Positions 6,803 through 62,848 of a stretch of DNA of 64,000 nt are shown in pieces. Under the pieces are notes generated by a model, which was given only the letters and a program-made list of their open reading frames with translations, ran no database searches and had not been told where the DNA came from. Position 1 is the first letter of the stretch, and every line of letters starts with the position of its first letter. This stretch comes from a virus. Lineage: Duplodnaviria > Heunggongvirae > Uroviricota > Caudoviricetes. The translations under genes were made by a program, and so were the position numbers. Where the stretch lies: IMG/VR virus record IMGVR_UViG_3300043467_001216; one strand, given 5' to 3'.

Positions 6803-7294
6803 TTAATAGAAAGTTTTTTGAAATTCAACCCAAATTTCTTCAATATTAGGATTAATTACATTAGAAAATATTGATGGTTCAAATGGTTTAATTAATAATT
6901 TCATACCCGCTTCATCAGGTGTTTTATTATCCTTAACTCGATTACAACTTTTACAACAAGTAACTAAATTACTCCAAGTATTTCCCCCACCTCTTGATTT
7001 AGGTAATACGTGGTCAATGGTTAAGTTTTTAGAACTACCACAATACGCACATTTATGATTATCACGTCTAAAGACCCTGTGTCTATTTATTTTTAAAGTC
7101 CGTACTCTAAATCTAACATAAGATAATAATCTAATTATCAAAGGTCTAACAAGAGTAGTTGACCCGGCAATAATAGGTGATTCACCTGATTTCAATATTT
7201 CGGCTTTACCTTTAGTAACTAAATTAAAACCTCGTATTGTTGTAGTTACATTAATCGGTGTGTAATCAGCATTTAATACTAATACTTTGTCCAT
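6803..7294 (-). CDS. HNH endonuclease (McrA-like)
   Basis: [40 protein letters not shown]; start moved to MDKVLVLN. Confidence 0.9.
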
Positions 7295-8377: not shown

Positions 8378-8407
8378 TTGACTACTAAAGAACTTTTACT
8401 AAATTTG
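8378..8407 (+). promoter_or_regulatory. Bacteroidota-type sigma-A promoter for leader 1
   Basis: TTGA (8378) about 18 nt upstream of TAAATTTG (8400-8407). Confidence 0.6.
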
Positions 8408-8433
8408 TTGATATATATTAAAAGAATTAAAAA

Positions 8434-8553
8434 ATGAGAACAACTGAACAACATATTAAACAAGTAAGTCAATCGAAACAGATTCGCGTGTGTAGCGTAT
8501 CGTATCCGATGTGGTTTATCACGTCATATGGTTCAGAAAACATATTAAGTTAG
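8434..8553 (+). CDS. leader peptide 1 of tRNA operon 1 (MRTTEQHIKQVSQSKQIRVCSVSYPMWFITSYGSENILS)
   Basis: 39 codons after A-rich start; codons 6-29 all read by operon-1 tRNAs; contains antiterminator strand. Confidence 0.8.
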   Translation: MRTTEQHIKQVSQSKQIRVCSVSYPMWFITSYGSENILS

Positions 8554-8612
8554 TTATAAACGTATAACAATTTGATAAGACCCCTGAACCAAAAGTTCGG
8601 GGGTTTTTTTTT
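8529..8612 (+). terminator. attenuator 1 (terminator/antiterminator)
   Basis: Terminator AGACCCCTGAAC-CAAAA-GTTCGGGGG-T9 (8578-8612); TGGTTCAG 8529-8536 complements CTGAACCA 8584-8591. Confidence 0.85.
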
Positions 8613-8621
8613 GAAATAAAA

Positions 8622-8688
8622 TTTGGAAGTTACGAAATGAAATTCGTACCTTTGACAACAGAAAAGTTCATTGACATATTGGTTTAGA
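8622..8688 (+). promoter_or_regulatory. sigma-A promoter plus boxA-like element
   Basis: TTTG 8622, TACCTTTG 8647-8654, GTTCATTGACATATTGGTTTAGA 8666-8688. Confidence 0.75.
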
Positions 8689-8695
8689 TAAATAA

Positions 8696-8782
8696 GGAGA
8701 GTATCTGGCAGGATGAAGAGCTACTCTTGAAAAGTAGTAAGACGTGTAATGGGTCTTGTGGGTTCGAGTCCCACACTCTCCT
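8696..8782 (+). tRNA. tRNA-Ser(TGA)
   Basis: GGAGAGT/ACTCTCC acceptor; CTACT-CTTGAAA-AGTAG; long variable arm; TTCGAGT. Confidence 0.9.
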
Positions 8783-8797
8783 CAAAAAAATAGAGTT

Positions 8798-8923
8798 ATG
8801 GTAAAAAGAGAAGTATTGACGGGAACATTTGAGTCAAGTAAAAGATTTTTAAGACAAGAGCCTAAAGAGGTTAAACTAAAATTCAGATTAATTAGAAAAT
8901 TAATCAAAAGGTTACATAAGTAA
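8798..8923 (+). CDS. small basic hypothetical protein (41 aa)
   Basis: MVKREVLTGTFESSKRFLRQEPKEVKLKFRLIRKLIKRLHK* fills the inter-tRNA gap. Confidence 0.5.
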   Translation: MVKREVLTGTFESSKRFLRQEPKEVKLKFRLIRKLIKRLHK

Positions 8924-8930
8924 CCATTAT

Positions 8931-9005
8931 TGTCCTGTAGGCGACGTTGGCAGAGCCACCACACTTTGAATGTGGATATCGCAGGTTCGATTCCTGCCGG
9001 GACAA
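8931..9005 (+). tRNA. tRNA-Gln(TTG)
   Basis: TGTCCTG/CGGGACA; CCACA-CTTTGAA-TGTGG. Confidence 0.92.
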
Positions 9006-9088
9006 CAATAAAACAATTAGTTATTTCACGTTAAAAGATGGTCTTATAGGCTCACGAAGGCCGTGTCAACATCAATAACTAATAAATT

Positions 9089-9161
9089 GGGTCAGTTGCC
9101 AAGTTGGTCAAGGCACTTGTCTGAAGAACAAGCAATGGGGGTTCGATTCCCTCCTGTCCCA
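9089..9161 (+). tRNA. tRNA-Phe(GAA)
   Basis: CTTGT-CTGAAGA-ACAAG; GGGGG-TTCGATT-CCCTC. Confidence 0.9.
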
Positions 9162-9241
9162 CGAGGTCCTGAATTAACAGGATACCCCCACCTCCGATAT
9201 GGCAGTCAGTCCGTTAAGCTGATGAAGTGGGGTTTTTATAT

Positions 9242-9318
9242 GGTGGCTATAGTGTTAGTGGTCGAGCACGTAAGTTTGTGGTTCTTATAGGTTGGGTTCG
9301 AATCCCAATAGTCACCCA
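9242..9318 (+). tRNA. tRNA-His(GTG)
   Basis: G-1 present; anticodon loop TTGTGGT; TTGGG-TTCGAAT-CCCAA. Confidence 0.88.
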
Positions 9319-9572
9319 ATTAATTTTTAAAACTTAGAAATCACAGAGACAGAAAAAACATTTATCAGTTCCGACTTAGAAAATGGTCGATGGTTATCTC
9401 CAATCGTAAGTGAAAGGAAATGGCAAGAAGAAAAATTAGTTGAGATATTCGGTCATTATCCGAACGCAAGTCCTAAATGGCTATATCTCAATGGTTTGAT
9501 ACACATTGCATTAGATTACATTAAACAAAATGAAGAAAAAATTTGACAAGTTGTAGGTTAAAAACCACAACT

Positions 9573-9770
9573 ATGAGTACAAACATCAACAGAGCAAAAC
9601 TGAACAAAGCACAAAATGGTAGAGAATACCGAAATAGATTGATAAATGACTTTTATCCAATTTATTGGGATGACGGAATTACTTTCTACGGAAACAAAAT
9701 GAGTTATCAAGTTAGAATGTATAAGACTTGGAAACACTACAGAAAAACTCAATATAAGGTAATAACCTAA
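9573..9770 (+). CDS. small basic hypothetical protein
   Basis: MSTNINRAKLNKAQ...MYKTWKHYRKTQYK; ATG 9573. Confidence 0.7.
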   Translation: MSTNINRAKLNKAQNGREYRNRLINDFYPIYWDDGITFYGNKMSYQVRMYKTWKHYRKTQYKVIT

Positions 9771-9865
9771 TAATGGGTGAATATTAGGTTAAAACCTAAT
9801 AATTGATGAATATAAGGCTGGAACCTTATAATGGTCGATTATAAGTCTCCAACCTTATTATTTGG
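9751..9865. repeat. four tandem 29-nt palindromic units
   Basis: Units at 9751, 9780, 9809, 9838; approximate consensus AATATAAGG-N4-AACCTWATAAT. Confidence 0.85.
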
Positions 9866-9935
9866 TTCCTTGGTGTAATGGATAGCACCTATCGCTACGG
9901 ACGATAATGTCAAGGTTCGAGTCCTTGGGGGACTA
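9864..9935 (+). tRNA. tRNA-Arg(ACG)
   Basis: TATCG-CTACGGA-CGATA; CAAGG-TTCGAGT-CCTTG. Confidence 0.92.
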
Positions 9936-9975
9936 CGTATCCGATGTGTGATACCGAGCTAGGTCGGTGTAATTT

Positions 9976-10063
9976 GGAAGATTACCCAAGTTGGTGAAGG
10001 GGTCACATTGCTAACGTGATAGGTCTGAAATATGACGCGTGGGTTCGAGCCCCACATCTTCCG
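9976..10063 (+). tRNA. tRNA-Ser(GCT)
   Basis: GGAAGAT/ATCTTCC; loop TTGCTAA; long variable arm. Confidence 0.92.
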
Positions 10064-10070
10064 CAGAAAC

Positions 10071-10140
10071 ACCGAGGCTTAGAGGAAAAGAACTATCTCT
10101 CATAAGGATGGTCAAGTGGGTTCGAAACCCATACTCGGTA
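10071..10140 (+). tRNA. tRNA-Met(CAT), atypical D arm
   Basis: ACCGAG/CTCGGT acceptor; loop CTCATAA; GTGGG-TTCGAAA-CCCAT; weak D arm. Confidence 0.7.
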
Positions 10141-10161
10141 CAAAAAAATATTACAAAGGTA

Positions 10162-10230
10162 TTGTGAGAATGGAAATGATTACTTATCTTTGTTAGACAA
10201 AAGAAAAGGTCTTTGACATATTGGTTTAGA
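10162..10230 (+). promoter_or_regulatory. internal sigma-A promoter plus boxA-like element
   Basis: TATCTTTG 10185-10192; GGTCTTTGACATATTGGTTTAGA 10208-10230. Confidence 0.75.
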
Positions 10231-10239
10231 AAGAAATAA

Positions 10240-10314
10240 CGGGGTGTAGTCTTGGGGTGAGACGCTTGGTTTGGGACCAAGAGGCGGCAGGTTCGACACC
10301 TGCCACCCCGACCA
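10240..10314 (+). tRNA. tRNA-Pro(TGG)
   Basis: CGGGGTG/CACCCCG-A-CCA; CTTGG-TTTGGGA-CCAAG. Confidence 0.95.
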
Positions 10315-10322
10315 AAAATTAA

Positions 10323-10396
10323 CGGAATGTAGCTCAGCTGGTAAGAGCATTCGCCTGATACGTGAAAGGTCGTAGGTTCGAACCCTACCATTCCGA
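10323..10396 (+). tRNA. tRNA-Ile(GAT)
   Basis: CGGAATG/CATTCCG; TTCGC-CTGATAC-GTGAA. Confidence 0.92.
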
Positions 10397-10522
10397 CTAC
10401 TTAATACCGAATCGGGTTTGTCAGTAAAGTGGGACCCTGCGACTATGACACTTAGGTGTAATTAGAGAAAATGACATTAAATAACCCACCACGGAAGGTG
10501 TTATCGGTGACCTTCTATTTTT

Positions 10523-10597
10523 GACTTCGTAGCTCAGTTGGTTTAGAGCAGTACACTTTTAATGTACGGGTCGTGAGTTCGATTCTCACCGGGGTCA
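10523..10597 (+). tRNA. tRNA-Lys(TTT)
   Basis: GTACA-CTTTTAA-TGTAC. Confidence 0.95.
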
Positions 10598-10605
10598 CAA
10601 TAATT

Positions 10606-10677
10606 AGCCCTTTAGCTTAAAGGTGAAGTACTTGTTTTACATACAAGATAGTGTAGGTTCGAGTCCTACAGGGGCTA
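10606..10677 (+). tRNA. tRNA-Val(TAC)
   Basis: CTTGT-TTTACAT-ACAAG. Confidence 0.9.
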
Positions 10678-10787
10678 CAAAATGTTAAGTTGGGTTTCCT
10701 AGTGGTAACGGTATGAACTATAGTAAGTAAGCCACAAGATTCTAGTAATAAGCGACAGATGGATTACTCGCGACTTAATATTTAATT

Positions 10788-10861
10788 GGACAGATGCCTG
10801 AGTGGTTTAAAGGGGTGGACTGCAAATCCACTATCCGGGGGTTCGAATCCCTCTCTGTCCT
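10788..10861 (+). tRNA. tRNA-Cys(GCA)
   Basis: GTGGA-CTGCAAA-TCCAC; U73 discriminator. Confidence 0.95.
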
Positions 10862-10887
10862 CAATGAAATATATTGTTTCATTATTT

Positions 10888-10959
10888 GCATCATTGGTGT
10901 AATGGCTAGCATAAATGGTTCCAACCCATTTGGTCAGGGTTCGAGTCCTTGGTGGTGCG
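10888..10959 (+). tRNA. tRNA-Trp(CCA)
   Basis: AATGG-TTCCAAC-CCATT; G73. Confidence 0.9.
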
Positions 10960-11030
10960 CAAATATCGTAGGAGAGTTGATTAAGTTCAAACCCGCCGTT
11001 AAATTGTGAAGGACAATCTACGATATATTC

Positions 11031-11113
<83 letters not shown>

Positions 11114-11191
11114 CAATAAAAAAAAATTTAAACCAATTGTTGACACTTTTCAAAACTTTGATATATTTAATTAGTAAAGAATAACAAAATT

Positions 11192-11266
11192 ATGCAAAAC
11201 TTGAATAACATACTAATAGCGAGAACGGAGGGAGACAATCCTTGTGTATCGGAGAAGGTGTGTTAA
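11192..11266 (+). CDS. leader peptide 2 of tRNA operon 2 (MQNLNNILIARTEGDNPCVSEKVC)
   Basis: 24 codons after A-rich start; codons 3-16 all read by operon-2 tRNAs; contains antiterminator strand. Confidence 0.8.
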   Translation: MQNLNNILIARTEGDNPCVSEKVC

Positions 11267-11322
11267 TTCATTAAACATAAAATTTAAATGAAACCCTTCT
11301 CCAAAAGAGAGGGGTTTTTTTT
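11251..11322 (+). terminator. attenuator 2 (terminator/antiterminator)
   Basis: AAACCCTTCTC-CAAAA-GAGAGGGG-T8 (11291-11322); GGAGAAGG 11251-11258 complements CCTTCTCC 11295-11302. Confidence 0.85.
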
Positions 11323-11332
11323 GTTACCTACG

Positions 11333-11404
11333 TTTGGTAAATCAAAATAAAAGCATTAGATTTGTCAGACAAAAGAAAAAAGTTCTTTGACATATTGGTT
11401 TAGA
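11333..11404 (+). promoter_or_regulatory. sigma-A promoter plus boxA-like element
   Basis: TTTG 11333, TAGATTTG 11357-11364, GTTCTTTGACATATTGGTTTAGA 11382-11404. Confidence 0.75.
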
Positions 11405-11411
11405 AGTTAAT

Positions 11412-11484
11412 ATCCTCGTGACGGAAAGGTATACGTCCTTGTCTTAGAAACAAGGTTTTGTGGGTTCGAATCCCACCGAGGATA
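11412..11484 (+). tRNA. tRNA-Leu(TAG), short variable loop
   Basis: ATCCTCG/CGAGGAT; CTTGT-CTTAGAA-ACAAG; 5-nt variable region. Confidence 0.88.
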
Positions 11485-11490
11485 CATAAT

Positions 11491-11564
11491 GGTTCAGTAG
11501 CTCAACAGGTGAGAGCAGGACGCTTATATCGTCAAGGTTGGGGGTTCAAATCCCTCCTGAACTA
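11491..11564 (+). tRNA. tRNA-Ile(TAT)
   Basis: GGTTCAG/CTGAACT; GACG-CTTATAT-CGTC. Confidence 0.85.
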
Positions 11565-11595
11565 CTGAAAAAATAAAAAATAAAAAATAAAAATT

Positions 11596-12111
11596 ATGTC
11601 AATATATAGTGTTGGTAGAAAAACTTACGGTTCTGAAAATATTAAAATTTACGAATGGGGTGAAGGTAAAACAATTAAAATAGGGTCTTTTTGTTCAATA
11701 GCAACAAATATTCAAATTTTTATTGGGGGTAATCATAGACCTGATTGGATTACAACATTCCCATTTCCACATTCGTTTAGTGTGGGTCATCCGTCATCTA
11801 ATGGTGATGTTATAATTGGTAATGATGTTTGGATTGGTGCTAATGCAACAATAATGTCAGGTGTTATTATTGGTGATGGTGCCGTTATTGCAAATAATTC
11901 TCACGTAGTAAAAAATGTTGAACCTTACACTATTGTTGGAGGTAATCCAGCTAAACCTATCCGTAAAAGATTTGATGATGAAACAATTCAAAAACTTTTA
12001 AAATTAAAATGGTGGGATTTTAATGATGATGAGATAAATAGAATAACCCCAATTTTATGTTCTAGTAATATAAACGAATTGTTTGAATTATATAAGGATA
12101 AATTACTTTAA
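11596..12111 (+). CDS. CatB/Vat-like hexapeptide-repeat O-acetyltransferase
   Basis: IGSFCSIA, GGNHRPDWITTFPF, IGNDVWIG, VGGNPAKPIRKRF, LKWWD. Confidence 0.9.
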   Translation: MSIYSVGRKTYGSENIKIYEWGEGKTIKIGSFCSIATNIQIFIGGNHRPDWITTFPFPHSFSVGHPSSNGDVIIGNDVWIGANATIMSGVIIGDGAVIANNSHVVKNVEPYTIVGGNPAKPIRKRFDDETIQKLLKLKWWDFNDDEINRITPILCSSNINELFELYKDKLL

Positions 12112-12142
12112 AAAAAGTCTTGTATAATCAAAAGTAAATACT

Positions 12143-12193
12143 TAGATTTGTAAGACAAAAGAAAACAAAAGGTCTTTGACATATCGGAATAGA
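12143..12193 (+). promoter_or_regulatory. internal sigma-A promoter plus boxA-like element
   Basis: TAGATTTG 12143-12150; GGTCTTTGACATATCGGAATAGA 12171-12193. Confidence 0.7.
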
Positions 12194-12204
12194 AAAAATA
12201 AAAT

Positions 12205-12278
12205 GTCGCGTTAGACGAGTGGTTTAAGTCGTCACCCTTTCAAGGTGAAAATCACGGGTTCGAATCCCGTACGCGATA
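12205..12278 (+). tRNA. tRNA-Glu(TTC)
   Basis: TCACC-CTTTCAA-GGTGA. Confidence 0.95.
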
Positions 12279-12283
12279 CATAT

Positions 12284-12355
12284 CGCGGGATGGGGGAGTG
12301 GTCACCCCGCTGGGCTCATAACCCTGAGACACAGGTTCGAATCCTGTTCCCGCTA
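12284..12355 (+). tRNA. initiator tRNA-fMet(CAT)
   Basis: C1 mismatch; GGG/CCC in anticodon stem; loop CTCATAA. Confidence 0.92.
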
Positions 12356-12361
12356 CTAAAT

Positions 12362-12546
12362 AAAACAAGTGAGGACGGTGAGTAAACCCTCACTGTCTAT
12401 AAATCCCAAGACGGTACTTGATTCGCGGTAGTAAAGTTATTGAGGGTAGAATTACTATAAGTCTGGGATTAGCTACCCAAATGACGAAAATGTAATCACC
12501 GAGTAAAATTGGTTATGATGTGTAATGGTCACGAAAAACTTGTTTT
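12362..12546 (+). ncRNA. structured inter-tRNA RNA (~185 nt), family unknown
   Basis: Closing stem AAAACAAGT/ACTTGTTTT; hairpin GACGGTGAG/CTCACTGTC; AATCCCA/TGGGATT; possible pseudoknot GGGTAG/CTACCC. Confidence 0.6.
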
Positions 12547-12554
12547 TTTAAAAT

Positions 12555-12626
12555 GGTCTATTAGTGTAGTGGCTAACATACATCCCTGTCACGGATGTGC
12601 CGCGAGTTCGATTCTCGCATAGACCG
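12555..12626 (+). tRNA. tRNA-Asp(GTC)
   Basis: CATCC-CTGTCAC-GGATG; G73. Confidence 0.95.
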
Positions 12627-12847
12627 CGGGAGTGTACACAGTAGAGTTCTGTTTGAGAGAGGATTGTAACACGCACTTTAAAATGAGGTTACAAGGTATC
12701 AAACCGTTTATTCAGTTTTGACCGATAAAAACTGACGATTTTTTGAGAAATTTTAAGTCGATATAAAATTTCTTCGTGATATTAGTAGGTTTGGCCGCCT
12801 CATCACGTTAATGTGATGAAACATACCCAATGGAGTAATCACAACTT

Positions 12848-12920
12848 GCGGTAGTCGTATAATGGTTTATTATATAACCTTGCCAAGGTTAGGACGGAGG
12901 TTCGATTCCTCTCTACCGCT
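12848..12920 (+). tRNA. tRNA-Gly(GCC)
   Basis: TAACC-TTGCCAA-GGTTA; U73. Confidence 0.93.
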
Positions 12921-12969
12921 CAAAATAAAGGAGTTATAACCCTTTATATGGATGGTTCGAAACATCCGA

Positions 12970-13043
12970 TTGAGTATGGTGTACGGTGCACGGATGATGG
13001 TAATACGGATTCAAGATTAAGGTTCAATTCCTTATTATTCAGC
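12970..13043 (+). ncRNA. tRNA-like element lacking a canonical anticodon arm
   Basis: TTGAGTA/TATTCAG acceptor-like stem; GTGT/GCAC D stem; TAAGG-TTCAATT-CCTTA T arm; no 5-bp/7-nt anticodon arm. Confidence 0.5.
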
Positions 13044-13066
13044 AAAGAGAAATAACACTCTTAATT

Positions 13067-13139
13067 GGTCTCTTAGTATAATGGCTTATTATTCTGGCTT
13101 TGTAACCCAGAGATAACGGTTCGAATCCGTTAGGGACCT
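13067..13139 (+). tRNA. tRNA-Thr(TGT)
   Basis: CTGGC-TTTGTAA-CCCAG (C:C mismatch at the pair closing the loop). Confidence 0.88.
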
Positions 13140-13145
13140 CACAAT

Positions 13146-13217
13146 GGACTATTAGCTCAGCGGTAGAGCAATCGGCTGTTAACCGATAGGTCGTAGGTTC
13201 GAATCCTTCATGGTCCG
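13146..13217 (+). tRNA. tRNA-Asn(GTT)
   Basis: ATCGG-CTGTTAA-CCGAT. Confidence 0.95.
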
Positions 13218-13276
13218 CAAAAAAGAGGAAAAACTTGTGTAGGTGCCTCAAGGGACTGCTGCCCTACTACACTCAA

Positions 13277-13356
13277 GGACCTGTGGTGAAATTGGTATAC
13301 ACGCTTTCTTTAAGCGGAAGTTCTTAGGATTGTGGGTTCGACTCCCACCAGGTTCA
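13277..13356 (+). tRNA. tRNA-Leu(TAA)
   Basis: CTTTC-TTTAAGC-GGAAG; variable arm. Confidence 0.9.
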
Positions 13357-13442
13357 CAATAGTGTCTCAGAACGCTCTGATAAGGTAACTTATTAACGAT
13401 GAGGTCTCGGTAGACAGAACGCGTCTGATTCTACCCAAATTA

Positions 13443-13515
13443 GCGGGTGTCGTATAGTGGATTATTATATTAGACTTCCAATTTAAAGACGAGGGTTCGA
13501 TTCCCTCCACCCGCT
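13443..13515 (+). tRNA. tRNA-Gly(TCC)
   Basis: GCGGGTG/CACCCGC; loop CTTCCAA. Confidence 0.93.
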
Positions 13516-13630
13516 CAAAATAGACAACAAACTCTTCACCGAGGAAAACCTTTAAAACAGATTCACAACTATAAAGGTCGTTGAGTTGGGTAATAATAAA
13601 TGTGAGTATTACCTGTTGTCTTTTTATTAT

Positions 13631-13706
13631 GGGGGTATCGTATAATGGCTTATTACGGTAGATTTGCAATTTACAAATCTGGTTTCGATTACCAGTACCT
13701 CCACCA
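13631..13706 (+). tRNA. tRNA-Ala(TGC)
   Basis: G3:U70 identity pair; loop TTTGCAA; encoded ACCA. Confidence 0.93.
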
Positions 13707-13712
13707 TATTTT

Positions 13713-13785
13713 GGTCCTATGATGTAACTGAATAGCATAAGCCCCTTCTAAGGGTTTCGTTGGGGTTTGAATCCCTGTAGGACTA
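13713..13785 (+). tRNA. tRNA-Arg(TCT)
   Basis: AGCCC-CTTCTAA-GGGTT; T loop TTTGAAT. Confidence 0.88.
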
Positions 13786-14145
13786 CTCGTTGTGATGACG
13801 GATACGATGACAATTTGAACAAAGTAAATCACATTTATCAAGTTCTTTAATTATTTTATCCCAAGAACGTTTTCGTAAGTGAGTCCATTCAACATCTTTT
13901 TGTGATGGGTCACGATGATGAAAATCAAAAATAACATATGGTGATTTAGGGTATGAATTAGAACAATCTAAACATTTACCACCTTTATACTCAATAGCTT
14001 TTATTTTTGTTTTAATCCAACGTTCAGAACAATATTTATTGAAGCAGACTTTACATTTTGATTGTTTTGAAGGTCTATCGTTTTGTTGATAGAATTCAGT
14101 TACTGATTTTTCTTCATTACACGAAGTACAAATTTTAGTTTCCAT
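13783..14145 (-). mobile_element. free-standing HNH homing endonuclease gene
   Basis: METKICTSC..CKVC zinc finger; GGKCLDC, FDFHHRDP, LLCSNCHRIRH; ATG 14145 preceded by TATTTAT; tRNA 3' fragment on the far side. Confidence 0.85.
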
Positions 14146-14189
14146 AACAATAAATATGTGGATAGTATCAAAAAGACTAATTCCATAAT

Positions 14190-14214
14190 CAGGGTTTGAA
14201 TCCCTGTGGGGCAA
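14190..14214 (+). pseudogene. orphan tRNA 3' fragment (T arm plus acceptor strand)
   Basis: GGGTTTGAATCCCTGT at 14192-14207 is identical to 13763-13778 in tRNA-Arg(TCT). Confidence 0.75.
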
Positions 14215-14216
14215 CA

Positions 14217-14420
14217 ATGAGTTCGAGAAACTCAATGGGTTTTTAAGAGTCCCTCAAAACTTAACGGAACTGATACCATCCACGTTACGGGGTATTCATT
14301 GGGAATCGGAAGGAAGACTCTCCTATCCCCCAAGTAAGAGTTGATTTTTAAGCGGTAAGACGCGTTGGGTTTTGCATAAGAAAACTGTGAATATCTACTC
14401 TCCGTAATCTCAGGAGGGGT
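14217..14420 (+). ncRNA. structured non-coding RNA (~200 nt), family unknown
   Basis: No long plus-strand ORF; raised GC; multiple hairpins; terminal hairpin CTCTCC-GTAATCTCA-GGAGGG. Confidence 0.5.
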
Positions 14421-14421
14421 T

Positions 14422-14528
14422 TATTTATTGACCGAGTGGTTTAAGGTTGAGCATACATAAAGTCTGGGAATGTGGTATGTATGATACCTATACACGGGGA
14501 CTCACAGGTTCGAATCCTGTATTGATAA
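14422..14528 (+). ncRNA. tRNA-like RNA with enlarged central domain
   Basis: D arm ACC-GAGTGGTTTAA-GGT and T arm ACAGG-TTCGAAT-CCTGT flank ~53 nt with a CATACATA/TATGTATG stem and 16-nt loop. Confidence 0.6.
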
Positions 14529-14592
14529 CGTAATTCTAAACCAATATGTTTTTTTTTTCATTTAAGAATATTTATTAATAAACAATTTTAAG

Positions 14593-17403: not shown

Positions 17404-17748
17404 ATGAAAACAATTATAGCTGGAGGTAGAGATTTTGAAGATTATAATCTACTACGAGAAAAGTGTGATAAGTTGATTAATTCAAACCTAACAGAAATTG
17501 TTAGTGGTCGTGCTAAAGGTGCTGACACATTAGGTGAGAGATATGCCAAAGAACGAGGATTTGACGTTAAGTTGTTTCCTGCGGATTGGAAAACTCACGG
17601 AAGAAAAGCGGGGCATATTAGAAATAAACAAATGGCCGATTATGGTGAAATGTTGATAGCATTTTGGGATGGTAAAAGTAGTGGTACTAAAAATATGATT
17701 GAGAATGCCAATAAATTAGGATTAATAGTTCATATTGTTAATTACTAG
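17404..17748 (+). CDS. SLOG-family (DUF2493/YspA-like) protein
   Basis: IIAGGRDF, IVSGRAKGAD, FPADW..G..AG..RN, AFWDGKSSGT. Confidence 0.85.
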   Translation: MKTIIAGGRDFEDYNLLREKCDKLINSNLTEIVSGRAKGADTLGERYAKERGFDVKLFPADWKTHGRKAGHIRNKQMADYGEMLIAFWDGKSSGTKNMIENANKLGLIVHIVNY

Positions 17749-17760
17749 ATATTTATTAAT

Positions 17761-18066
17761 ATGATTAACGAAGAAATTGATAAAATTAAATATTTGTTCG
17801 GTTATAAACCCGGTGTGGTTATTAGTGAACAAACAACAGGTACAACAACACCCACGACGGGTACGACTACACCAGCAACAACACCACCTGCTGAGACTAA
17901 AATAACACAAAAAGACCTTGACAAATTAAGAGATTGTGCCGACTATAATTCAACAGGTTCTAAATCAACAAACAAACTTACTAAAGGTGAAGAAACTAAA
18001 GAATTTCTAGTCTTTAAAGGAAGTGACGGTAAACCGGCGTGTAAGAAACCTAAAGAGAAAAAATAA
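17761..18066 (+). CDS. hypothetical late protein
   Basis: INEEIDKIKYLFGY...VISEQ; Thr-rich; TATTTAT at 17750. Confidence 0.7.
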   Translation: MINEEIDKIKYLFGYKPGVVISEQTTGTTTPTTGTTTPATTPPAETKITQKDLDKLRDCADYNSTGSKSTNKLTKGEETKEFLVFKGSDGKPACKKPKEKK

Positions 18067-18128
18067 AATTTAATAGATAATAAGTTAAGAGGGGTTTTTA
18101 AATCCCTCTTTTTTTTTATATTTGTGGT

Positions 18129-18587
18129 ATGGAAAAAGTAAGAATATATTTAGATGATGTGAGAACACCGGTTGATAAAGATTGGTTAGTTGTTAGAAAT
18201 TTTCACGAGTTTATTAATTTGGTAAATAAAGTTGGTTTAACTAATATATCATTAATCTCATTGGACCACGATTTAGGTGATACTGCGATGAAAGAATACT
18301 TCAATAACGTATCTAAAAATTATAAATTAGATTATGAAAATATTGAGGAAAAAACCGGATATGATGCTGCTAAATGGTTAGTAACAGAATTTTACGAGAT
18401 AAACGAAAACCGTATTAATATGTCAAGATTTGATAAGAAACAAAAACCTATCAAATTTCCTGATGTTGTAGTTCACTCGGCAAATCCGATTGGGTCAGCA
18501 AACATTATGGGTTATATCAATAACTTCCTAATGAATGAGGGACAAGAACAAACTTGCGTTAGAGTTAAAATAGAACACACTGTTTAA
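18129..18587 (+). CDS. cyclic-phosphate processing receiver (cREC-like) domain protein
   Basis: IYLDDVRTP, ISLDHDLG, TGYDAAKWL, VHSANPIG. Confidence 0.8.
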   Translation: MEKVRIYLDDVRTPVDKDWLVVRNFHEFINLVNKVGLTNISLISLDHDLGDTAMKEYFNNVSKNYKLDYENIEEKTGYDAAKWLVTEFYEINENRINMSRFDKKQKPIKFPDVVVHSANPIGSANIMGYINNFLMNEGQEQTCVRVKIEHTV

Positions 18588-18609
18588 TTTTTTTTTATAT
18601 ATTAGCCTT

Positions 18610-19092
18610 ATGAACGTTTTTATATTAGATTTCGATGTTAAGAAATGTGCTGAATATCATTGTGATAAGCACGTAGTTAAAATGATACTTGAGACTGCAC
18701 AACTTTTATGTGGTGTTCATCACGTAATTGAGACTCAAACTGAGATACCTTATAGGTTATCTCATAAGAACCACCCAAGTGCGATATGGTCGAGAGAGTC
18801 GTTATCTAATTATCTATATTTGTGTGAGTTAGGTTTAGAGTTATGTTATGAATACACATACAGATATGGTAAACGTCATAAATCACAAGATGTTATTGAG
18901 TGGTGTTTAGATAAAAAACCAAATATCGTTGACAAAGGATTTACTGAACCCCCAAAGGCAATGCCTGACGAATATAAAGTTGACAGTGTTGTCGATTCGT
19001 ATAGAAATTATTATAAAGGAGCCAAATCAGGATTTGCGGTATGGAAAAACAGAGAAGTTCCTGAATGGTATAAAGAATTAGAATTAGTATGA
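18610..19092 (+). CDS. pyrimidine-dimer DNA glycosylase-like protein
   Basis: MNVFILD, CDKHVVKMILETAQLL, HKNHP, EYTYRYGKRH, AMPDEYK. Confidence 0.75.
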   Translation: MNVFILDFDVKKCAEYHCDKHVVKMILETAQLLCGVHHVIETQTEIPYRLSHKNHPSAIWSRESLSNYLYLCELGLELCYEYTYRYGKRHKSQDVIEWCLDKKPNIVDKGFTEPPKAMPDEYKVDSVVDSYRNYYKGAKSGFAVWKNREVPEWYKELELV

Positions 19093-19757
19093 TAAAAATT
19101 GAAAAAGATAGAAAAGGAAATTTACCTGATGTTTGGATAACATCAGATACTCACTACAATCACTCAAACATTTGTCGTGGGACTACTAATTGGAGAAAAC
19201 CTGATGGTTCAGTTCCAATCAAAGAAACTCGTGACTTCAAATCGTTGGATATAATGAACGATATGATTGTGGATAATATAAACCAATATGTTAAACAAGA
19301 TGATGTGTTAATTCACTTGGGTGATTGGTCATTTGGTGGTTTTGAATTCATTAGAAAATTCAGAGAAAGAATTATATGTAAAAACATACACTTAATTTTG
19401 GGTAACCACGACCACCACATTGAGAATAACAAAGAAAACATTCAATCGTTATTCTCAAGTGTTTCACAATATAACACATTGGTATTGGGTAAAATTAATA
19501 TTAGATTGTTTCACTACCCGATTGATTCTTGGAATGGATTGAATAAAGGTGAAATACATCTACACGGTCACTGTCACTTACCTAATGATATTAAATTAGG
19601 GAAAGGAAAACGAATGGATGTTGGTATGGACGGACATCCTGAATTTAGACCATACCACATTGTTGATGACATTCTACCAATAATGTCAAAACAACCAATT
19701 CATTCACATTTGGAACACGACCACCATACAGAAGAAATGTTAAACGTAGTAGGATAA
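19089..19757 (+). CDS. calcineurin-like metallophosphoesterase
   Basis: TSDTH, HLGD, GNHD, HYP, HGHCH. Confidence 0.9.
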   Translation: MIKIEKDRKGNLPDVWITSDTHYNHSNICRGTTNWRKPDGSVPIKETRDFKSLDIMNDMIVDNINQYVKQDDVLIHLGDWSFGGFEFIRKFRERIICKNIHLILGNHDHHIENNKENIQSLFSSVSQYNTLVLGKINIRLFHYPIDSWNGLNKGEIHLHGHCHLPNDIKLGKGKRMDVGMDGHPEFRPYHIVDDILPIMSKQPIHSHLEHDHHTEEMLNVVG

Positions 19758-19763
19758 AAGATT

Positions 19764-20114
19764 ATGGAAGATTACGACAAAAGAGATTTATTTTTAGAGT
19801 CTATCAAAATGTTAGAAGAACTAAGAAAAATACAAGAAGAAAACAAAGACAATAGAGTCAAAGAAATTGGTGATAGAGTTATTGTTTGGGATGGTAGTTA
19901 TAACATAGATAAAAACACCTCAAAACATCGTAGTGGTATTGATAAATTATTTCAAAACCCCGGTATTGTTATTCAAACAAACTGTGATATAAACCATTTT
20001 GAACCATTGATTGAAAAATTAGTGATTCTTGATTTATTGATTAGATTTGAAACGGGTGAAGAAGTATACACTAGTTCAGATATGGTTAAACGAATTGATA
20101 AAGATAATGTATGA
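19764..20114 (+). CDS. hypothetical protein
   Basis: 116 aa ORF in operon. Confidence 0.75.
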   Translation: MEDYDKRDLFLESIKMLEELRKIQEENKDNRVKEIGDRVIVWDGSYNIDKNTSKHRSGIDKLFQNPGIVIQTNCDINHFEPLIEKLVILDLLIRFETGEEVYTSSDMVKRIDKDNV

Positions 20115-20311
20115 AAAAATTTAATTACAAAAAATATCAGTTATTAGATTGTTTAGATGAAATATCATCAACACAAAAAATGATTGATTTACATAGTGAT
20201 AATTCAGATAGAATTAGTAATTTTATGATGTCTCAATATAGAGATATGAGAAAACAAAGTATTATAGAATTTAATAAAATATCATATGGAAAGAAAATTA
20301 GCAACGATTAG
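20111..20311 (+). CDS. hypothetical protein
   Basis: 66 aa; ATGA overlap with previous gene. Confidence 0.6.
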   Translation: MKKFNYKKYQLLDCLDEISSTQKMIDLHSDNSDRISNFMMSQYRDMRKQSIIEFNKISYGKKISND

Positions 20312-21320
20312 ACAAATTGACAACATCCAACCAATCGAAGGTGCGGATATGATTGAATTAGCAACCGTTGGGGGGTGGAAAGTCGTAGTTGCAAAAAATG
20401 TTAACCACAAAGTTGGGGATTTAGTTGTTTACTGTGAGATTGACTCTTTTTTACCAATCGAACCTGAGTTTGAATTTTTACGTAAAAGTTCTTACAAGAA
20501 AATGGCCGACGGTACTGAAGGTTTCAGATTAAAAACTATTAAATTAAGAGGACAAGTTTCTCAAGGTTTAATTTTACCATTAAAAGATGCTTACGAAGTT
20601 TTCAAAAGAAACACTCCCAATATAGATATGGATTGGTTTGAAGGTTTAGAAGTAACTGAAATGTTAAACATTGTAAAATACGAACCACCTGTTCCTGCAC
20701 AATTATCAGGACAAGTTAAAGGTATGTTCCCATCTTTTTTAAAGAAAACTGATGAGGAAAGAATTCAAAACTTGACAAGAGAGTTTGAAGGGTACAAGAA
20801 CGAAGTGTTTTATGTGACTGAAAAGTTAGATGGTTCTAGTGTAACTTACTACGTTAAAGACGGTGTGTTTGGTGTATGTTCTCGTAACTTAGATTTAGTT
20901 GAGAGTGAAGGTAACTCAATGTGGAAATTTGCAATCACAAGTGGATTAAAAGAACGTTTACTAGCGTTAGATAGAAACATTGCGGTCCAAGGGGAAATCA
21001 TTGGTGAGGGTATTCAAGGTAACCCATATAAAATCATCGGACAAACTGTTAGATTGTTTAATGGTTTTGATATTGATAAGTATGAATATTTATCTTTGGA
21101 TGATTTACTTAAATTATCTAAATGGTTAGAGGTAAAAACAGTTCCAATCTTAGATTTAGAATTTAGATTACCTGACACAATTGATGAGTTATTATCTTAT
21201 GCCGATAGTAAATCAGTATTGAATGAAAAGTTCGATAGAGAAGGAATTGTAATTCGTTCTCACGATAGAAAAATCAGTTTTAAGGTGATTTCTAATAAAT
21301 TTTTATTAAATGAAAAATGA
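20286..21320 (+). CDS. RNA ligase, Rnl2-like (DRB0094 family)
   Basis: RKLATI..I..I.PI.GAD N-domain; TEKLDGSS, QGEIIG, REGIV, SFKVIS. Confidence 0.9.
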   Translation: MERKLATIRQIDNIQPIEGADMIELATVGGWKVVVAKNVNHKVGDLVVYCEIDSFLPIEPEFEFLRKSSYKKMADGTEGFRLKTIKLRGQVSQGLILPLKDAYEVFKRNTPNIDMDWFEGLEVTEMLNIVKYEPPVPAQLSGQVKGMFPSFLKKTDEERIQNLTREFEGYKNEVFYVTEKLDGSSVTYYVKDGVFGVCSRNLDLVESEGNSMWKFAITSGLKERLLALDRNIAVQGEIIGEGIQGNPYKIIGQTVRLFNGFDIDKYEYLSLDDLLKLSKWLEVKTVPILDLEFRLPDTIDELLSYADSKSVLNEKFDREGIVIRSHDRKISFKVISNKFLLNEK

Positions 21321-22258
21321 AATTTTTAATATTTTTATTAATGTTATGTTTGTCTGTGGTTGTTCACGGGCAAACATATCTTGTTGACCAACACTTTTCA
21401 AATGTATCACCAACAGGGTGGTCGTCAACCTCTAATGTGTGGGTGTTTAACCGAAATGAGACGGCCACAGGTAATTATCGAGGTGTGTTTGACGCGACAA
21501 AATATTCGGCAAGATTTTCATCGGCAGCTAATGGTAATTCAATTTATATTTACATACCTATTAATTTTGTTAATAGTAATAGTTACACAATTACTTTTTA
21601 CACTAAAAGAGCCTGCTCAGTTACGGTTAACACTAATGAATTACCAAATCAAACAACATTATTAACAACTGATACTCAAACTAACTCAAACTGTAATTCA
21701 AATTGGAACACCTGGTATAAATGGTCATTTACTGTAGTTCCATCTTATACAGGTTCAGGTTATTTTCAAATATGGATTAAAACTGTGTATGGTGGTCCAA
21801 CATCGGTATATTTAGATGATTTATCAATATATGAGTCACCACCGGTATCCTTACCGATTGATTTGTTATACTTTAAAGGTAAACAAACTGAAGAAGGTAA
21901 TTTACTTGAATGGGCAACTGCAACTGAAACTAATAATCAATATTTTACAATCTATAAAACGTATTATCCAATTAATTGGAAAGAAATTGCTAAAGTTGAT
22001 GGTGTTGGAACTTCACCATTTCAACATTATTACAAGTATTTAGAAAGAGATTATTTTAATGACATTTCATATTATTATTTAACTCAAACCGATTTTGACG
22101 GTAAAACTAAAAATTTTGAAATTATATCTATAGACAATCGTAACATCACACCAGTATTAATTAAGATAACAAATCTTTTAGGTCAAGAAGTTACATTAGA
22201 TTCACCCGGTGTTAAATTTTTTCACTATTCAGACGGTACTATTATAAAAAGAATTTAG
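21317..22258 (+). CDS. secreted Bacteroidota-type protein (T9SS-cargo-like)
   Basis: Signal peptide; LPIDLLYF..LEWATATETNN..YYYLTQTDFDG Ig-like module; C-terminal NLLGQEV...YSDG. Confidence 0.75.
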   Translation: MKFLIFLLMLCLSVVVHGQTYLVDQHFSNVSPTGWSSTSNVWVFNRNETATGNYRGVFDATKYSARFSSAANGNSIYIYIPINFVNSNSYTITFYTKRACSVTVNTNELPNQTTLLTTDTQTNSNCNSNWNTWYKWSFTVVPSYTGSGYFQIWIKTVYGGPTSVYLDDLSIYESPPVSLPIDLLYFKGKQTEEGNLLEWATATETNNQYFTIYKTYYPINWKEIAKVDGVGTSPFQHYYKYLERDYFNDISYYYLTQTDFDGKTKNFEIISIDNRNITPVLIKITNLLGQEVTLDSPGVKFFHYSDGTIIKRI

Positions 22259-22270
22259 TATATTTGTTGT

Positions 22271-23326
22271 ATGAAAGCAACGTTAGAAAAATATTACAAC
22301 GATGGATTATTGTACAAACAAGTACATTCAACTTTACCATTAACTATATGGAATTACACTGAGAAAGTTCAGTTTGAAGACTTATGGGATGAGGTAACCT
22401 TGATGTGCCGTGGTTTAGTAACTGACGATAACGGTAATATAGTTGCAAGACCATTCAGAAAATTCTTCAATATGGAAGAAGGGAAACATACTTCAACTGA
22501 TGAATTCAAAGTCTATGAAAAAATGGATGGTTCATTGGGTATATTTTTCCACTATGAAGGTGAATGGGTGATGGCAACTCGTGGGTCATTTACTTCTGAC
22601 CAATCGGTAAAAGGTATGGAAATGTTATCTAAATACGACTACAACAAATTACATAAAGATTTCACTTACTTATTTGAAATAATATATTCTGACAACAGAA
22701 TAGTTTGTTCTTATGATTTTGAAGATGTTGTTTTACTTGGTGCGGTAAACACTAAAGACGATTACGAAGTTAGTTTACACGGTGACTCAGATATAAGAAT
22801 ACAAAACTTAGTGAAAAACATAGGTCTTAATGTAGTTAAACGTTATGATGGTATATCAGACTATTCAGTGTTAAAAGAGATGGTTAGAGACGATGCTGAG
22901 GGGTTTATAGTTCACTTCTCAAATGGTAATAGAATGAAAGTTAAAGGTGTTGAATACTTACGTCTACACAAAATAATGACTAACGTATCAACTACTGGTA
23001 TATGGGAATGTTTAAAAAATGGTGATGATGTTTTAGAATTGATGAAAGAAGTTCCTGACGAATTCTACAAAAAAATAAAATCTTACGTTAAAGACTTGAG
23101 ATACGCTCACTACTCAATATCCGAATACTGTGGTAAAATGCACGACGGATTTAGATACGGAAAATATGGTGACGTTGACCCTGAACCATCTAAGAAAGAA
23201 TACGCAGAGTTTGTTATGAAAAACATAAAAGAAGGTCTTAGAGGTGTAATGTTTCAGATGTGGGATAAAAAAGATTACGATGAAACTATATGGAAACTAA
23301 TAAGACCGGAATTCAAAAAGTTATAA
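22271..23326 (+). CDS. RNA ligase 1 (T4 Rnl1-like)
   Basis: CRGLV, ARPFRKFFN, EKMDGSLG, TRGSF, FEII, EGFIV, KVKG..Y. Confidence 0.9.
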   Translation: MKATLEKYYNDGLLYKQVHSTLPLTIWNYTEKVQFEDLWDEVTLMCRGLVTDDNGNIVARPFRKFFNMEEGKHTSTDEFKVYEKMDGSLGIFFHYEGEWVMATRGSFTSDQSVKGMEMLSKYDYNKLHKDFTYLFEIIYSDNRIVCSYDFEDVVLLGAVNTKDDYEVSLHGDSDIRIQNLVKNIGLNVVKRYDGISDYSVLKEMVRDDAEGFIVHFSNGNRMKVKGVEYLRLHKIMTNVSTTGIWECLKNGDDVLELMKEVPDEFYKKIKSYVKDLRYAHYSISEYCGKMHDGFRYGKYGDVDPEPSKKEYAEFVMKNIKEGLRGVMFQMWDKKDYDETIWKLIRPEFKKL

Positions 23327-25047: not shown

Positions 25048-25926
25048 AATTATCCGTTCAGAATGTTTGATGATGAGACCCTTGTGGTTGATTTTGAGTA
25101 ACAAACTGATAAAGATATTTGGCCGTGTATGGTCATTAAATAAACTACGAAAGTAGGATAAAGTGGACCCCCAAGTGTAACGGGTCTGCGTCTTGGGAAA
25201 CTGAGGTCGAGTACACAAGCGGGATACCGTATAACCTTTAGTATCGAGGTCAACGATGTAGAGAAAGTGGTTATATGATTTGGTGATGTGGGTCATCAAA
25301 TTGAGGTGGGAACACCAATAGGAATAACTCGTAGGAATTATGTGAGAAATAGTGTTATCCGATATTATTATTACGAGTTCCAATATAAGAGGTGACTTAA
25401 AACCGAAAGGTATGAAAACAAACAGGTGGTGCTGACATTTTCCTTGATTATTCTTTACCAAAAGAATTTTCTCGAAGTAATCTTAAAATATTGAGGTAGG
25501 GATACTTCACAGAGTAGTTTGGTATTTCGTTGTTCAAAAGACGACGAATCTAAAAGACGGACCACTACTTTGATTCATCCACAACACAAAAACTTTAATT
25601 TACAAGGTTAATGTAAAAATTAAATTATAAATTTAAGCAAAAGTGTTCGTCAGGTAATAGTGAAAGGTGACTACATAGTAATGAGCAGTTCATTGCCTAG
25701 GAAGACCGCAAGTCGACCTAAATTCTTACCAAAAACCTCTAATCTCGCAAGGATTAATTGGGAAGGCATTCTCGAAGAGAGTTGAGTAATGAGAGAGTAA
25801 CTATTATCTCAAGGAGTGGTTCACCTAAAAAACCGTCACTGAGGAATACTTCTCAAAAGGAAGTGGATAAGAAGGGAAACAATAATCCTTCAAAAGGTTC
25901 TCAATAATACGTATAATCTCAGCGTT
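25048..25926 (+). ncRNA. large ornate ncRNA, GOLLD-like (~880 nt)
   Basis: No long plus-strand ORF; raised GC; many GNRA hairpins (CTAC-GAAA-GTAG, ACC-GAAA-GGT, GCAA loops); own promoter/boxA; next to a tRNA. Family inferred from size and context; ends approximate. Confidence 0.65.
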
Positions 25927-25937
25927 TTTTTATATAT

Positions 25938-26010
25938 AGCAGGGGGGAGGTAAGGTATCTCATCGGTCTCATAAGCCGACCCAAGCTGGTTCGATTCCGG
26001 TCCGTTGCTA
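25938..26010 (+). tRNA. tRNA-CAT (Met or Ile2), bulged acceptor stem
   Basis: TCGGT-CTCATAA-GCCGA; GCTGG-TTCGATT-CCGGT. Confidence 0.8.
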
Positions 26011-27130: not shown

Positions 27131-27519
27131 TGGTGGAGATAGAGGGACTCGAACCCTCGTGTCGTACATTTTAAGTATTAAGGACTACACGCTTAGGTCA
27201 ACATTTTCTAATGTTCCGAAAATAGTTATTTTTGTTCTTCACCATCGTAAAAATAACAACCAATGGACGATTCGATTTACGGACTCAATCGTTTTTCCGT
27301 CTTTTTAAAGACTTCTGTTCCTGGGTTATATGTCCATCGACCCGCGTCGTCGTAACTTCTTAAGCTACAACAACTTCTTCTTCACGGATTAATCCGATTT
27401 TAGAAAGAGTATTTAAAACGTTGCCGTTTGTACTTCGATACCATAGATTTAAGTGATAGATATCGTCTCACTGCGTGCCCCGAATAGTTAACCATGTCGG
27501 TCAATTCCAAGTTATCCCC
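27131..27519 (-). ncRNA. ssrA: tmRNA
   Basis: 5' GGGGATAA..GGAATTGAC; 3' GAGGG-TTCGAGT-CCCTC-TATCTCC-ACCA with G3:U70; tag frame GNVLNTLSKIGLIREEEVVVA* (27425-27360); upstream TATATTTG and boxA. Confidence 0.92.
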
Positions 27520-43164: not shown

Positions 43165-43355
43165 TCGTTATTTGATTTAAAGTTTTTCTGAACGTGTTTA
43201 GCCTTGCTAAGCACGTTTCTTTTTATTACAGAAGGTTTAACAAACACTTTACGGTTAACCAATTCAGACATTTGTCTTGTTTTAATTACTTTACTCTTAT
43301 ATTCTTTAAGGGCTTTTTCGATATTTTTATCTTTATTTACTTTTACTACAATCAT
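43161..43355 (-). CDS. rpsU: ribosomal protein bS21
   Basis: NIEKALK.YK.K...T....EL..R..FVKPSV.KR pattern; 64 aa. Confidence 0.88.
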   Translation of the reverse strand: MIVVKVNKDKNIEKALKEYKSKVIKTRQMSELVNRKVFVKPSVIKRNVLSKAKHVQKNFKSNND

Positions 43356-62832: not shown

Positions 62833-62848
62833 TTTTATTTAAGGGTTA

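Follow-up and report, generated by a model that had tools for sequence, protein, structure and literature searches.

The 64,000-nt stretch of DNA analyzed here (the window) is IMG/VR record IMGVR_UViG_3300043467_001216, assigned to Caudoviricetes, and the region studied spans positions 8434-13785. This region holds two blocks of tRNA genes, each preceded by a tiny open reading frame (ORF) and an intrinsic terminator, an arrangement suggestive of ribosome-mediated attenuation. A preliminary description of the sequence had placed a tiny ORF before each block, and both were found there, with 39 and 24 codons; such leader ORFs are overlooked by standard gene callers. The components of the two putative attenuators and the blocks behind them are as follows:

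8434..8553, forward strand: leader ORF 1 (39 aa), conserved in relatives
8444..8449, forward strand: segment 1 (anti-antiterminator) of attenuator 1, predicted to pair with segment 2 in ribosome-free nascent RNA
8449-8520, forward strand: candidate sensing run of leader 1, codons 6-29, covering all 14 block-1 tRNAs
8529..8536, forward strand: segment 2 (antiterminator strand) of attenuator 1, a perfect 8-nt complement of 8584-8591
8581..8612, forward strand: intrinsic terminator 1, with a 9-bp stem, CAAAA loop, and U9 tract
8696..11114, forward strand: tRNA block 1, with 13 tRNAs called by ARAGORN plus a weak Met
11192..11266, forward strand: leader ORF 2 (24 aa), with its candidate sensing run at codons 3-16 (11198-11239)
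11251..11258, forward strand: segment 2 (antiterminator strand) of attenuator 2, a perfect 8-nt complement of 11295-11302
11294..11322, forward strand: intrinsic terminator 2, with an 8-bp stem, CAAAA loop, and U8 tract; no other strong terminator lies between it and block 1
11412..13786, forward strand: tRNA block 2, with 12 tRNAs called by ARAGORN

In order, block 1 encodes tRNAs Ser-TGA, Gln, Phe, His, Arg-ACG, Ser-GCT, Met (weak), Pro, Ile-GAT, Lys, Val, Cys, Trp, and Tyr, and block 2 encodes Leu-TAG, Ile-TAT, Glu, Met-CAT (initiator-like by sequence), Asp, Gly-GCC, Thr, Asn, Leu-TAA, Gly-TCC, Ala, and Arg-TCT. The 26 tRNAs originally counted in this span are 25 by ARAGORN (13 + 12), whose 26th call lies at 25936; the count returns to 26 if the weak tRNA-Met(CAT) at ~10071-10143 is included, which scores 23 bits in Rfam, below gathering, and has a syntenic tRNA called in the relative L004. 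The elongator anticodons of the two blocks, described as non-overlapping, are so with the sole exception of a sub-threshold Arg-ACG-like element at 12971-13043 in block 2. This element, below the detection threshold, lies at the same place in relatives L001 and L004; further sub-threshold tRNA-like elements occur at 14152-14243 and ~14430-14530. With wobble permitted generously, 33 codons are read by block 1 and 28 by block 2, with ATG the only one shared and CGG the only one unread. By codon usage of the window, each block reads about half (50.2% for block 1 and 51.6% for block 2).

Leader 1 contains 24 consecutive codons read by its own block and leader 2 contains 14, in agreement with the preliminary description, which had also judged such runs unlikely by chance; the probability of the run is 5e-7 for leader 1 and 5e-4 for leader 2. 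Among real ORF windows, equally long runs were found in 0 of 15270 (24 codons) and 24 of 16215 (14 codons), and the longest run matching the other block is 4 codons in either leader. The run of leader 1 covers 14/14 tRNAs of block 1 and that of leader 2 covers 10/11 elongator tRNAs of block 2, missing Gly-GCC (additional P of 0.0012 and 0.025, respectively). The match extends to isoacceptors: leader 1 uses ATT/ATC and CGC (Ile-GAT and Arg-ACG in block 1), while leader 2 uses ATA and AGA (Ile-TAT and Arg-TCT in block 2). A short ORF just upstream was found for 3 of the 12 strong terminators of the window, namely these two and one unrelated gene end.

For comparison, ~230 viral loci were gathered via a neighboring HNH gene and two terminator patterns. 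Units consisted of a terminator located ≤500 nt from a tRNA and a short ATG-initiated ORF ending just upstream, and blocks of the tRNAs up to the next leader unit or a gap of 2-2.5 kb. The leader core was taken as codon 6 to 13 nt before the antiterminator, a definition made after seeing the data of the first set; L147, L188, and L169 were excluded from the first statistics due to an unconvincing antiterminator or a partial ORF. The first set comprises 83-85 distinct leaders from huge phages whose tRNA genes are heavily reshuffled among two or three blocks, and the system is widespread, with ~150 distinct homologous leaders overall in a partial scan.

Across 28 clusters (60% peptide identity), 86% of core codons are read by the leader's own block, compared to 50.4% after permutation (sd 4.5, maximum 69.5 in 20000). 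The major terminator type alone gives 86% vs 57%, and the minor type 83% vs 65% (n=5, p 0.016). Reciprocally, 277/315 block tRNAs have a core codon, against 53% permuted. The effect is confined to the ORF frame, with matches of 86, 49, and 47% in frames 0, 1, and 2, respectively. Because the core had been defined after seeing the first data, the same test was repeated unchanged on a blind set of 120 metagenome loci chosen solely by a terminator end plus a boxA-like motif (see below). Its 43 new usable leaders, many with blocks cut by contig ends, gave 73.5% vs 41.9% permuted (maximum 52%). At the blind sites, a short leader ORF was present in 79/103 and a tRNA within 300 nt in 96/103. The extreme matches include a Gln/Pro/His core before a Pro/His/Gln block, a Lys/Tyr core before Lys/Tyr, and a Ser/Arg core before Ser/Arg.

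In 19 branch-disjoint pairs of relatives differing in block content, the leader change was concordant in 14, discordant in 0, and tied in 5 (sign test, 1.2e-4); counted by class, 43.6 differences were concordant, 2 discordant, and 51 unchanged. Single clean losses of a tRNA are mirrored in the leader for Asp (L146 vs L171), Ala (L124 vs L144), Trp (L107 vs L057), and Phe (L007 vs the window). Leader codons track the adjacent anticodons in reshuffled homologues, a check proposed at the outset. The homologues are related and the cluster representatives are not wholly independent, leaving room for the argument that one lucky match was widely inherited; the independent pairs (14:0) and the blind replication both refute it, and matching leaders stand before very different blocks (Pro/Gln/His, Lys/Tyr, or Ser/Arg only). 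Chance combined with shared ancestry is accordingly given almost no credence. That the feature is real and under selection is virtually certain.

In blocks with a single isoacceptor class for an amino acid, the core codons follow that class: counts are 14:0 and 0:19 for Arg, 46:2 and 4:13 for Ile, and 7:1 and 0:7 for Leu, while the Ser table is not significant, and units in these tables are not mutually independent. Such resolution bears on the possibility that the attenuators are real but tuned to amino-acid starvation or a global slowdown of translation, as a nutrient or timing switch, rather than to loss of tRNAs. Charging is what classical attenuators sense (PMC1183508), any stall upstream of the footprint edge yields readthrough in the model described below, and the hosts inhabit nutrient-poor water. 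However, the isoacceptor-level match (Arg CGN vs AGR, Ile ATY vs ATA, and Leu) follows tRNA gain and loss, extra tRNA cannot make up for a missing amino acid, and block-specific codons would be superfluous in a general speed sensor; a starvation or slowdown switch is thus considered unlikely.

Both terminators of the window were recovered as intrinsic terminators with the CAAAA loop (fold z of -5.0 and -5.7), and the antiterminators extend into that loop by 2 nt in attenuator 1 and 1 nt in attenuator 2, as previously described. Predicted energies of antiterminator vs terminator are -20.3 vs -17.9 kcal/mol (attenuator 1) and -15.8 vs -15.0 kcal/mol (attenuator 2). When RNA masked by a ribosome was modeled, the antiterminator was lost at codons 29-30 of leader 1 and 16-18 of leader 2, which are the ends of the matched runs. 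In 76/85 homologous leaders, the best complement of the terminator arm begins no more than 33 nt before the end of the ORF or shortly past that end, and the spacing from stop codon to terminator is mostly 22-40 nt, centered at 25-27 nt. Terminator/antiterminator covariation, the other comparative check suggested initially, was found in both terminator types. Alignment of 42 type-1 units showed 98.4% pairing in the antiterminator helix and 25 compensatory cells, one position being AU in 23, GC in 15, and GU in 4 antiterminators and often GU in the terminator; the type-2 antiterminator helix likewise covaries.

The 5′ end of the ORF supplies the remaining pairing. The segment 1:2 duplex of attenuator 1 has a predicted energy of -9.6 kcal/mol, matched by 0/40 shuffles, and across 149 leaders the pairing of segment 1 with segment 2 is partner-specific (-6.1 vs -4.2 kcal/mol when swapped), with segment 2 paired upstream in 126/149 nascent folds. 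This 1:2 pairing of the ORF 5′ end probably explains why codons 2-5 are not matched to the block. At the other end, in 108 units, the ten codons preceding the footprint edge match at 82-90%, and three codons past that edge the match is at background level. The matched zone ends ~13 nt before the antiterminator, at the distance of a ribosome footprint. Pairings 1:2, 2:3, and 3:4 covary and are mutually exclusive, as in ribosome-mediated attenuators, and the units contain every element expected of such a device at the sequence level, as described for pheL (PMC3082878): an ORF, a terminator, 2:3 vs 3:4 alternatives, the 1:2 pairing, and suitably placed cognate codons.

A ribosome-independent sensor of the T-box kind, in which tRNAs would pair directly with leader codons, also operates by codon-anticodon matching, and UGG stands at the start of segment 2 of attenuator 1, as in the antiterminator bulge of T-boxes. 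The UGG is not conserved among homologues, no Rfam T-box match was obtained even at E 5, and the matches lie in one continuous ATG-to-stop frame with a stop-to-terminator distance of mostly 22-40 nt. T-box identity was therefore rejected for want of an Rfam match and a conserved UGG, and a sensor of this type is very improbable. Families of amino-acid biosynthesis leaders were likewise rejected: His_leader (23/49 bits) and Phe_leader (25/55 bits) matched the terminator region only, and tRNAs lie downstream. Segments 2 and 3 of attenuator 1 resemble the tRNA-Ile(TAT) acceptor stem, which was taken as coincidence since the motif varies in homologues.

Promoter-like signals are present both before the leaders and behind the terminators, with functions assigned from sequence:

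8400..8421, forward strand: promoter-like signals before leader 1, with a Bacteroidota sigma-A -7 box (TAnnTTTG, 8400-8407) and an ATATTTA variant (8413-8421)
8622..8677, forward strand: host-type promoter (TTGG..TAnnTTTG, -7 box 8647-8654) and boxA-like motif (8667-8677) behind terminator 1
10185-10192, forward strand: internal promoter of block 1, with a boxA-like motif at 10209-10219
11163..11170, forward strand: ATATTTA phage motif before leader 2, a probable phage (late) promoter
11333..11393, forward strand: host-type promoter (-7 box 11357-11364) and boxA-like motif (11383-11393) behind terminator 2
12143-12150, forward strand: internal promoter of block 2, with a boxA-like motif at 12172-12182

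ATATTTA is also located just upstream of many structural-region genes of the window. Upstream of homologous leaders, ATATTTA occurs in 40/82 (vs 5 shuffled) and TAnnTTTG in 28/82 (vs 2.8). The four boxA-like motifs of the window each lie ~20-30 nt after a TAnnTTTG box within the tRNA region; they may correspond to the boxA of rrn leaders, and no Bacteroidota reference for boxA was found in a limited literature search. The preliminary description was correct that host-type promoters lie behind the terminators, though with one more inside each block there are four promoter/boxA-like modules rather than two. This layout would suit terminators that merely insulate the blocks, with tRNAs made from host-type promoters 35-70 nt behind both terminators and within both blocks, and with leaders that are vestigial or unrelated to readthrough. 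In 32/83 homologues (~40%), however, no TAnnTTTG promoter lies between the terminator and the first tRNA, and in 25/83 the boxA-like motif begins ≤20 nt from the terminator arm, where it is likely transcribed via readthrough. The antiterminator is, moreover, maintained by compensatory change, and leaders are rewritten as blocks change, leaving insulation alone a distinctly poor account.

Several observations weigh against attenuation by tRNA supply. Of the differences in block content between paired relatives, approximately half have no counterpart in the leader, which may reflect lag or missed tRNA calls; the L002 leader, for instance, retains codons for Val and Ala, tRNAs that were not detected there. 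The tree used for pairing was built from attenuator DNA, leader included, and has some weak branches; per-class tests on well-supported branches comprise 1-4 pairs each, are underpowered, and none is significant alone. In equilibrium folding of ribosome-free nascent RNA, the antiterminator is preferred once the terminator arm is made, so the default state of an untranslated leader RNA would, in the model, depend on folding kinetics. Finally, with four host-type promoters 3′ of the terminators, regulation in this genome cannot be all-or-none, and attenuation would add to a basal route.

Among matched core codons there is a preference for wobble-read forms that this AT-rich genome otherwise uses rarely. 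For matched Pro/Ser/Ala/Thr family-box codons, NCG accounts for 39/74 (first set), 51/90 (blind set), and 5/5 (window) vs 10.6% genome-wide, and GAG/CAG/AAG make up ~40% of matched core codons of their kind vs 13%. His/Tyr core codons end in T in 46/48 cases vs 67%; the p-values of these biases are inflated by relatedness. Theory holds that synonymous codon choice sets attenuator sensitivity (PMC1183508), and the direction of the leader bias agrees. Such a bias would render the sensor responsive to loss of U34 modification.

Taken together, these results support the earlier reading of the leaders as attenuators polling the tRNA pool, through codon tracking, the ORF-frame effect, covariation, and the cutoff at the footprint edge. 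Ribosome-mediated attenuation giving negative feedback on tRNA supply is assigned a probability of roughly 0.85; the phage probably makes more of a tRNA set when its leader codons are read slowly. In the proposed mechanism, a trp/his/phe-type attenuator before each block has been repurposed to monitor the tRNAs encoded by that block. Fast reading of the sensing zone would bring the ribosome over segment 2, allowing the terminator to form and transcription to stop. If any of the 10-14 tRNAs were scarce, cut, uncharged, or poorly modified, the ribosome would stall at least ~13 nt upstream, segment 2 would capture the terminator arm, and polymerase would enter the block, with Nus antitermination factors probably joining it at the boxA-like motif. 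Relief of the stall by the newly made tRNAs would close a negative feedback loop, and two complementary blocks would permit a response to half of the code at a time. In this genome, the host-type promoters would provide basal or early expression and the attenuator an added inducible, probably late, layer. The most likely trigger would be loss of host tRNA function during infection, by defense nucleases or general host tRNA decay.

The thrL and ilvGMEDA leaders are multivalent attenuators, and the pheM leader of E. coli pheST attenuates an aminoacyl-tRNA synthetase operon. The latter likewise adjusts the translation component that supplies the sensed codon, but it concerns one amino acid, a protein product, and the host chromosome. 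T-box riboswitches share a terminator/antiterminator switch that reads tRNA status via a codon, whereas they use a single specifier codon, no translation, and a conserved Stem I, which was not found in the window. The pheL-pheA (PMC3082878) and trp/his (PMC1183508) leaders have in common with the phage units a short ORF, 1:2/2:3/3:4 pairings, a U-tract terminator, regulatory codons ending approximately one footprint before segment 2, and biased synonymous codons. Unlike these biosynthesis leaders, the phage attenuators precede tRNA genes, not enzymes, such that the product itself would close the loop; they would poll 10-14 tRNA species with ~1-4 codons each instead of carrying runs for 1-3 amino acids; and they resolve isoacceptors, are phage-encoded, and are rewritten when tRNA genes move. 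An attenuator of such design can read tRNA supply, since deletion of one tRNA-Phe gene derepresses pheL-pheA 6-7-fold (PMC3082878). Leader-peptide attenuation has also been indicated in Flavobacterium (PMC9723704).

The trn operon of Anabaena is a tRNA L-array of 26 genes (PMC8421152, PMC10272220) that is similarly kept low and is induced when translation is impaired by stress; in contrast, it is controlled at initiation by the TrcR repressor and is not codon-specific, and neither attenuation nor a leader is mentioned in the paper. Phage tRNAs counter tRNA-cleaving defenses, as for T5 tRNA-Lys versus PARIS (PMC11464382; PMC10264068; PMC11555353). These cases supply a likely purpose, the replacement of lost host tRNAs, and no sensing or control of the phage tRNA genes is described in the abstracts and literature surveyed. 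No publication on attenuation of tRNA genes was found in a search conducted largely outside subscription journals.

Annotated phage records gave single tRNA or acetyltransferase matches only, and Rfam has no family for the leaders. No host-chromosome copy was found in searches of limited sensitivity. The terminator plus boxA pattern matched just two short contigs among 185,579 prokaryote genomes. These contigs, L234 in a Saccharibacteria metagenome-assembled genome (MAG) and L233 in a Melioribacter MAG, each carry the terminator and boxA-like motif upstream of tRNA genes; L234 shows duplicated tRNA genes together with a leader that is clearly matched, and both are probably mis-binned phage DNA. 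A covariance model run on 151 genomes of a Bacteroidota-side phylum gave 9 weak matches, the readable ones being ordinary terminators without a tRNA behind. Two leaders occur in a different huge phage, L134 (IMGVR_UViG_3300009668_000406), the first before a Glu/Phe/His/Trp/Lys block with a probable tryptophanyl-tRNA synthetase gene behind it, and the second before a Ser/Arg block. Its genes include ones resembling SmpB, ClpP, and an ECF sigma, all of these names being assigned by eye from the translations.

Within the blocks of the window, a gene for a Vat/CatB-like hexapeptide acetyltransferase (11596-12111), below all curated cut-offs, is inserted in block 2; the close relative L001 has no room for it there. 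A tRNA-Ile with a TAT anticodon is rare in bacteria, and the slot of tRNA-Ile(TAT) at 11491-11565 is occupied in relatives L002 and L225 by a CAT-anticodon tRNA, probably of the lysidine-type Ile2. Structured spacers between tRNA genes (9165-9235, 10410-10515, 12365-12545, and 13365-13435) have no Rfam match and could be small noncoding RNAs or processing elements. An HNH endonuclease gene on the reverse strand (6803-7294) adjoins the tRNA region and is syntenic with tRNA clusters in many relatives.

The window has a GC content of 31% and encodes a T4-like major capsid protein (Gp23), ClpB, tmRNA, and GOLLD RNA. An S21-like ribosomal protein gene (43161-43355, reverse strand) lies in the capsid region between probable portal and probable protease genes and matches TIGR00030 with E 3.5e-5 and 23.6 bits, under the 28.95 cut-off. 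Bacteroidetes phages encoding bS21, with genomes of 293-331 kb and 5-25 tRNAs each (PMC9723584), share with the window 31% GC and T4-like capsid genes, the reverse-strand position of its S21-like gene fits theirs, and they probably represent its clade; unlike the proposal made here, that paper nowhere mentions attenuation. The host would accordingly belong to Bacteroidota, with which the TAnnTTTG boxes agree, this being the sigma-A -7 consensus in Flavobacterium (PMC9723704).

At 25510-26009, GOLLD RNA is directly followed by a tRNA-Met(CAT), with no leader-terminator unit ahead, and the tmRNA (27131-27519, reverse strand) has a TAnnTTTG box and boxA-like motif upstream, again with no such unit ahead. 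At 62173-63508 (reverse strand), two adjoining 219-aa ORFs with near-identical N-termini are apparently a tandem duplication. Downstream of the tRNA blocks, positions 17404-23326 encode a YspA SLOG protein, a cyclic-phosphate receiver domain, a metallophosphoesterase, and two RNA ligases, one DRB0094-type above its cut-off and one T4 RnlA-like below. By its gene content, this cluster looks like an RNA/tRNA repair kit; the two ligases and the phosphoesterase lie 5-9 kb 3′ of the blocks.

The narrower proposal that the leaders are surveillance devices directed specifically against tRNA-targeting bacterial immunity is tentative, standing at a little under even odds. If true, two ribosome-read checklists written in wobble-sensitive codons would scan nearly the whole genetic code, and cleavage or hypomodification of any host tRNA would switch on only the block holding its replacement, constituting an inducible, RNA-only counter-defense and a genomic readout of the tRNAs attacked in uncultured hosts. 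More broadly, the reach of classical attenuation, until now 1-3 amino acids and genes for enzymes, would grow to take in 10-14 isoacceptors and the tRNA genes themselves, and the leaders may be possible compact, rewritable in vivo sensors of tRNA availability. The role of phage tRNA genes has been debated for fifty years between codon compensation and replacement of destroyed host tRNAs. A demand-driven switch would imply that these phages treat their tRNAs as an on-call supply, and readthrough at each leader would report which tRNAs are failing during infection.

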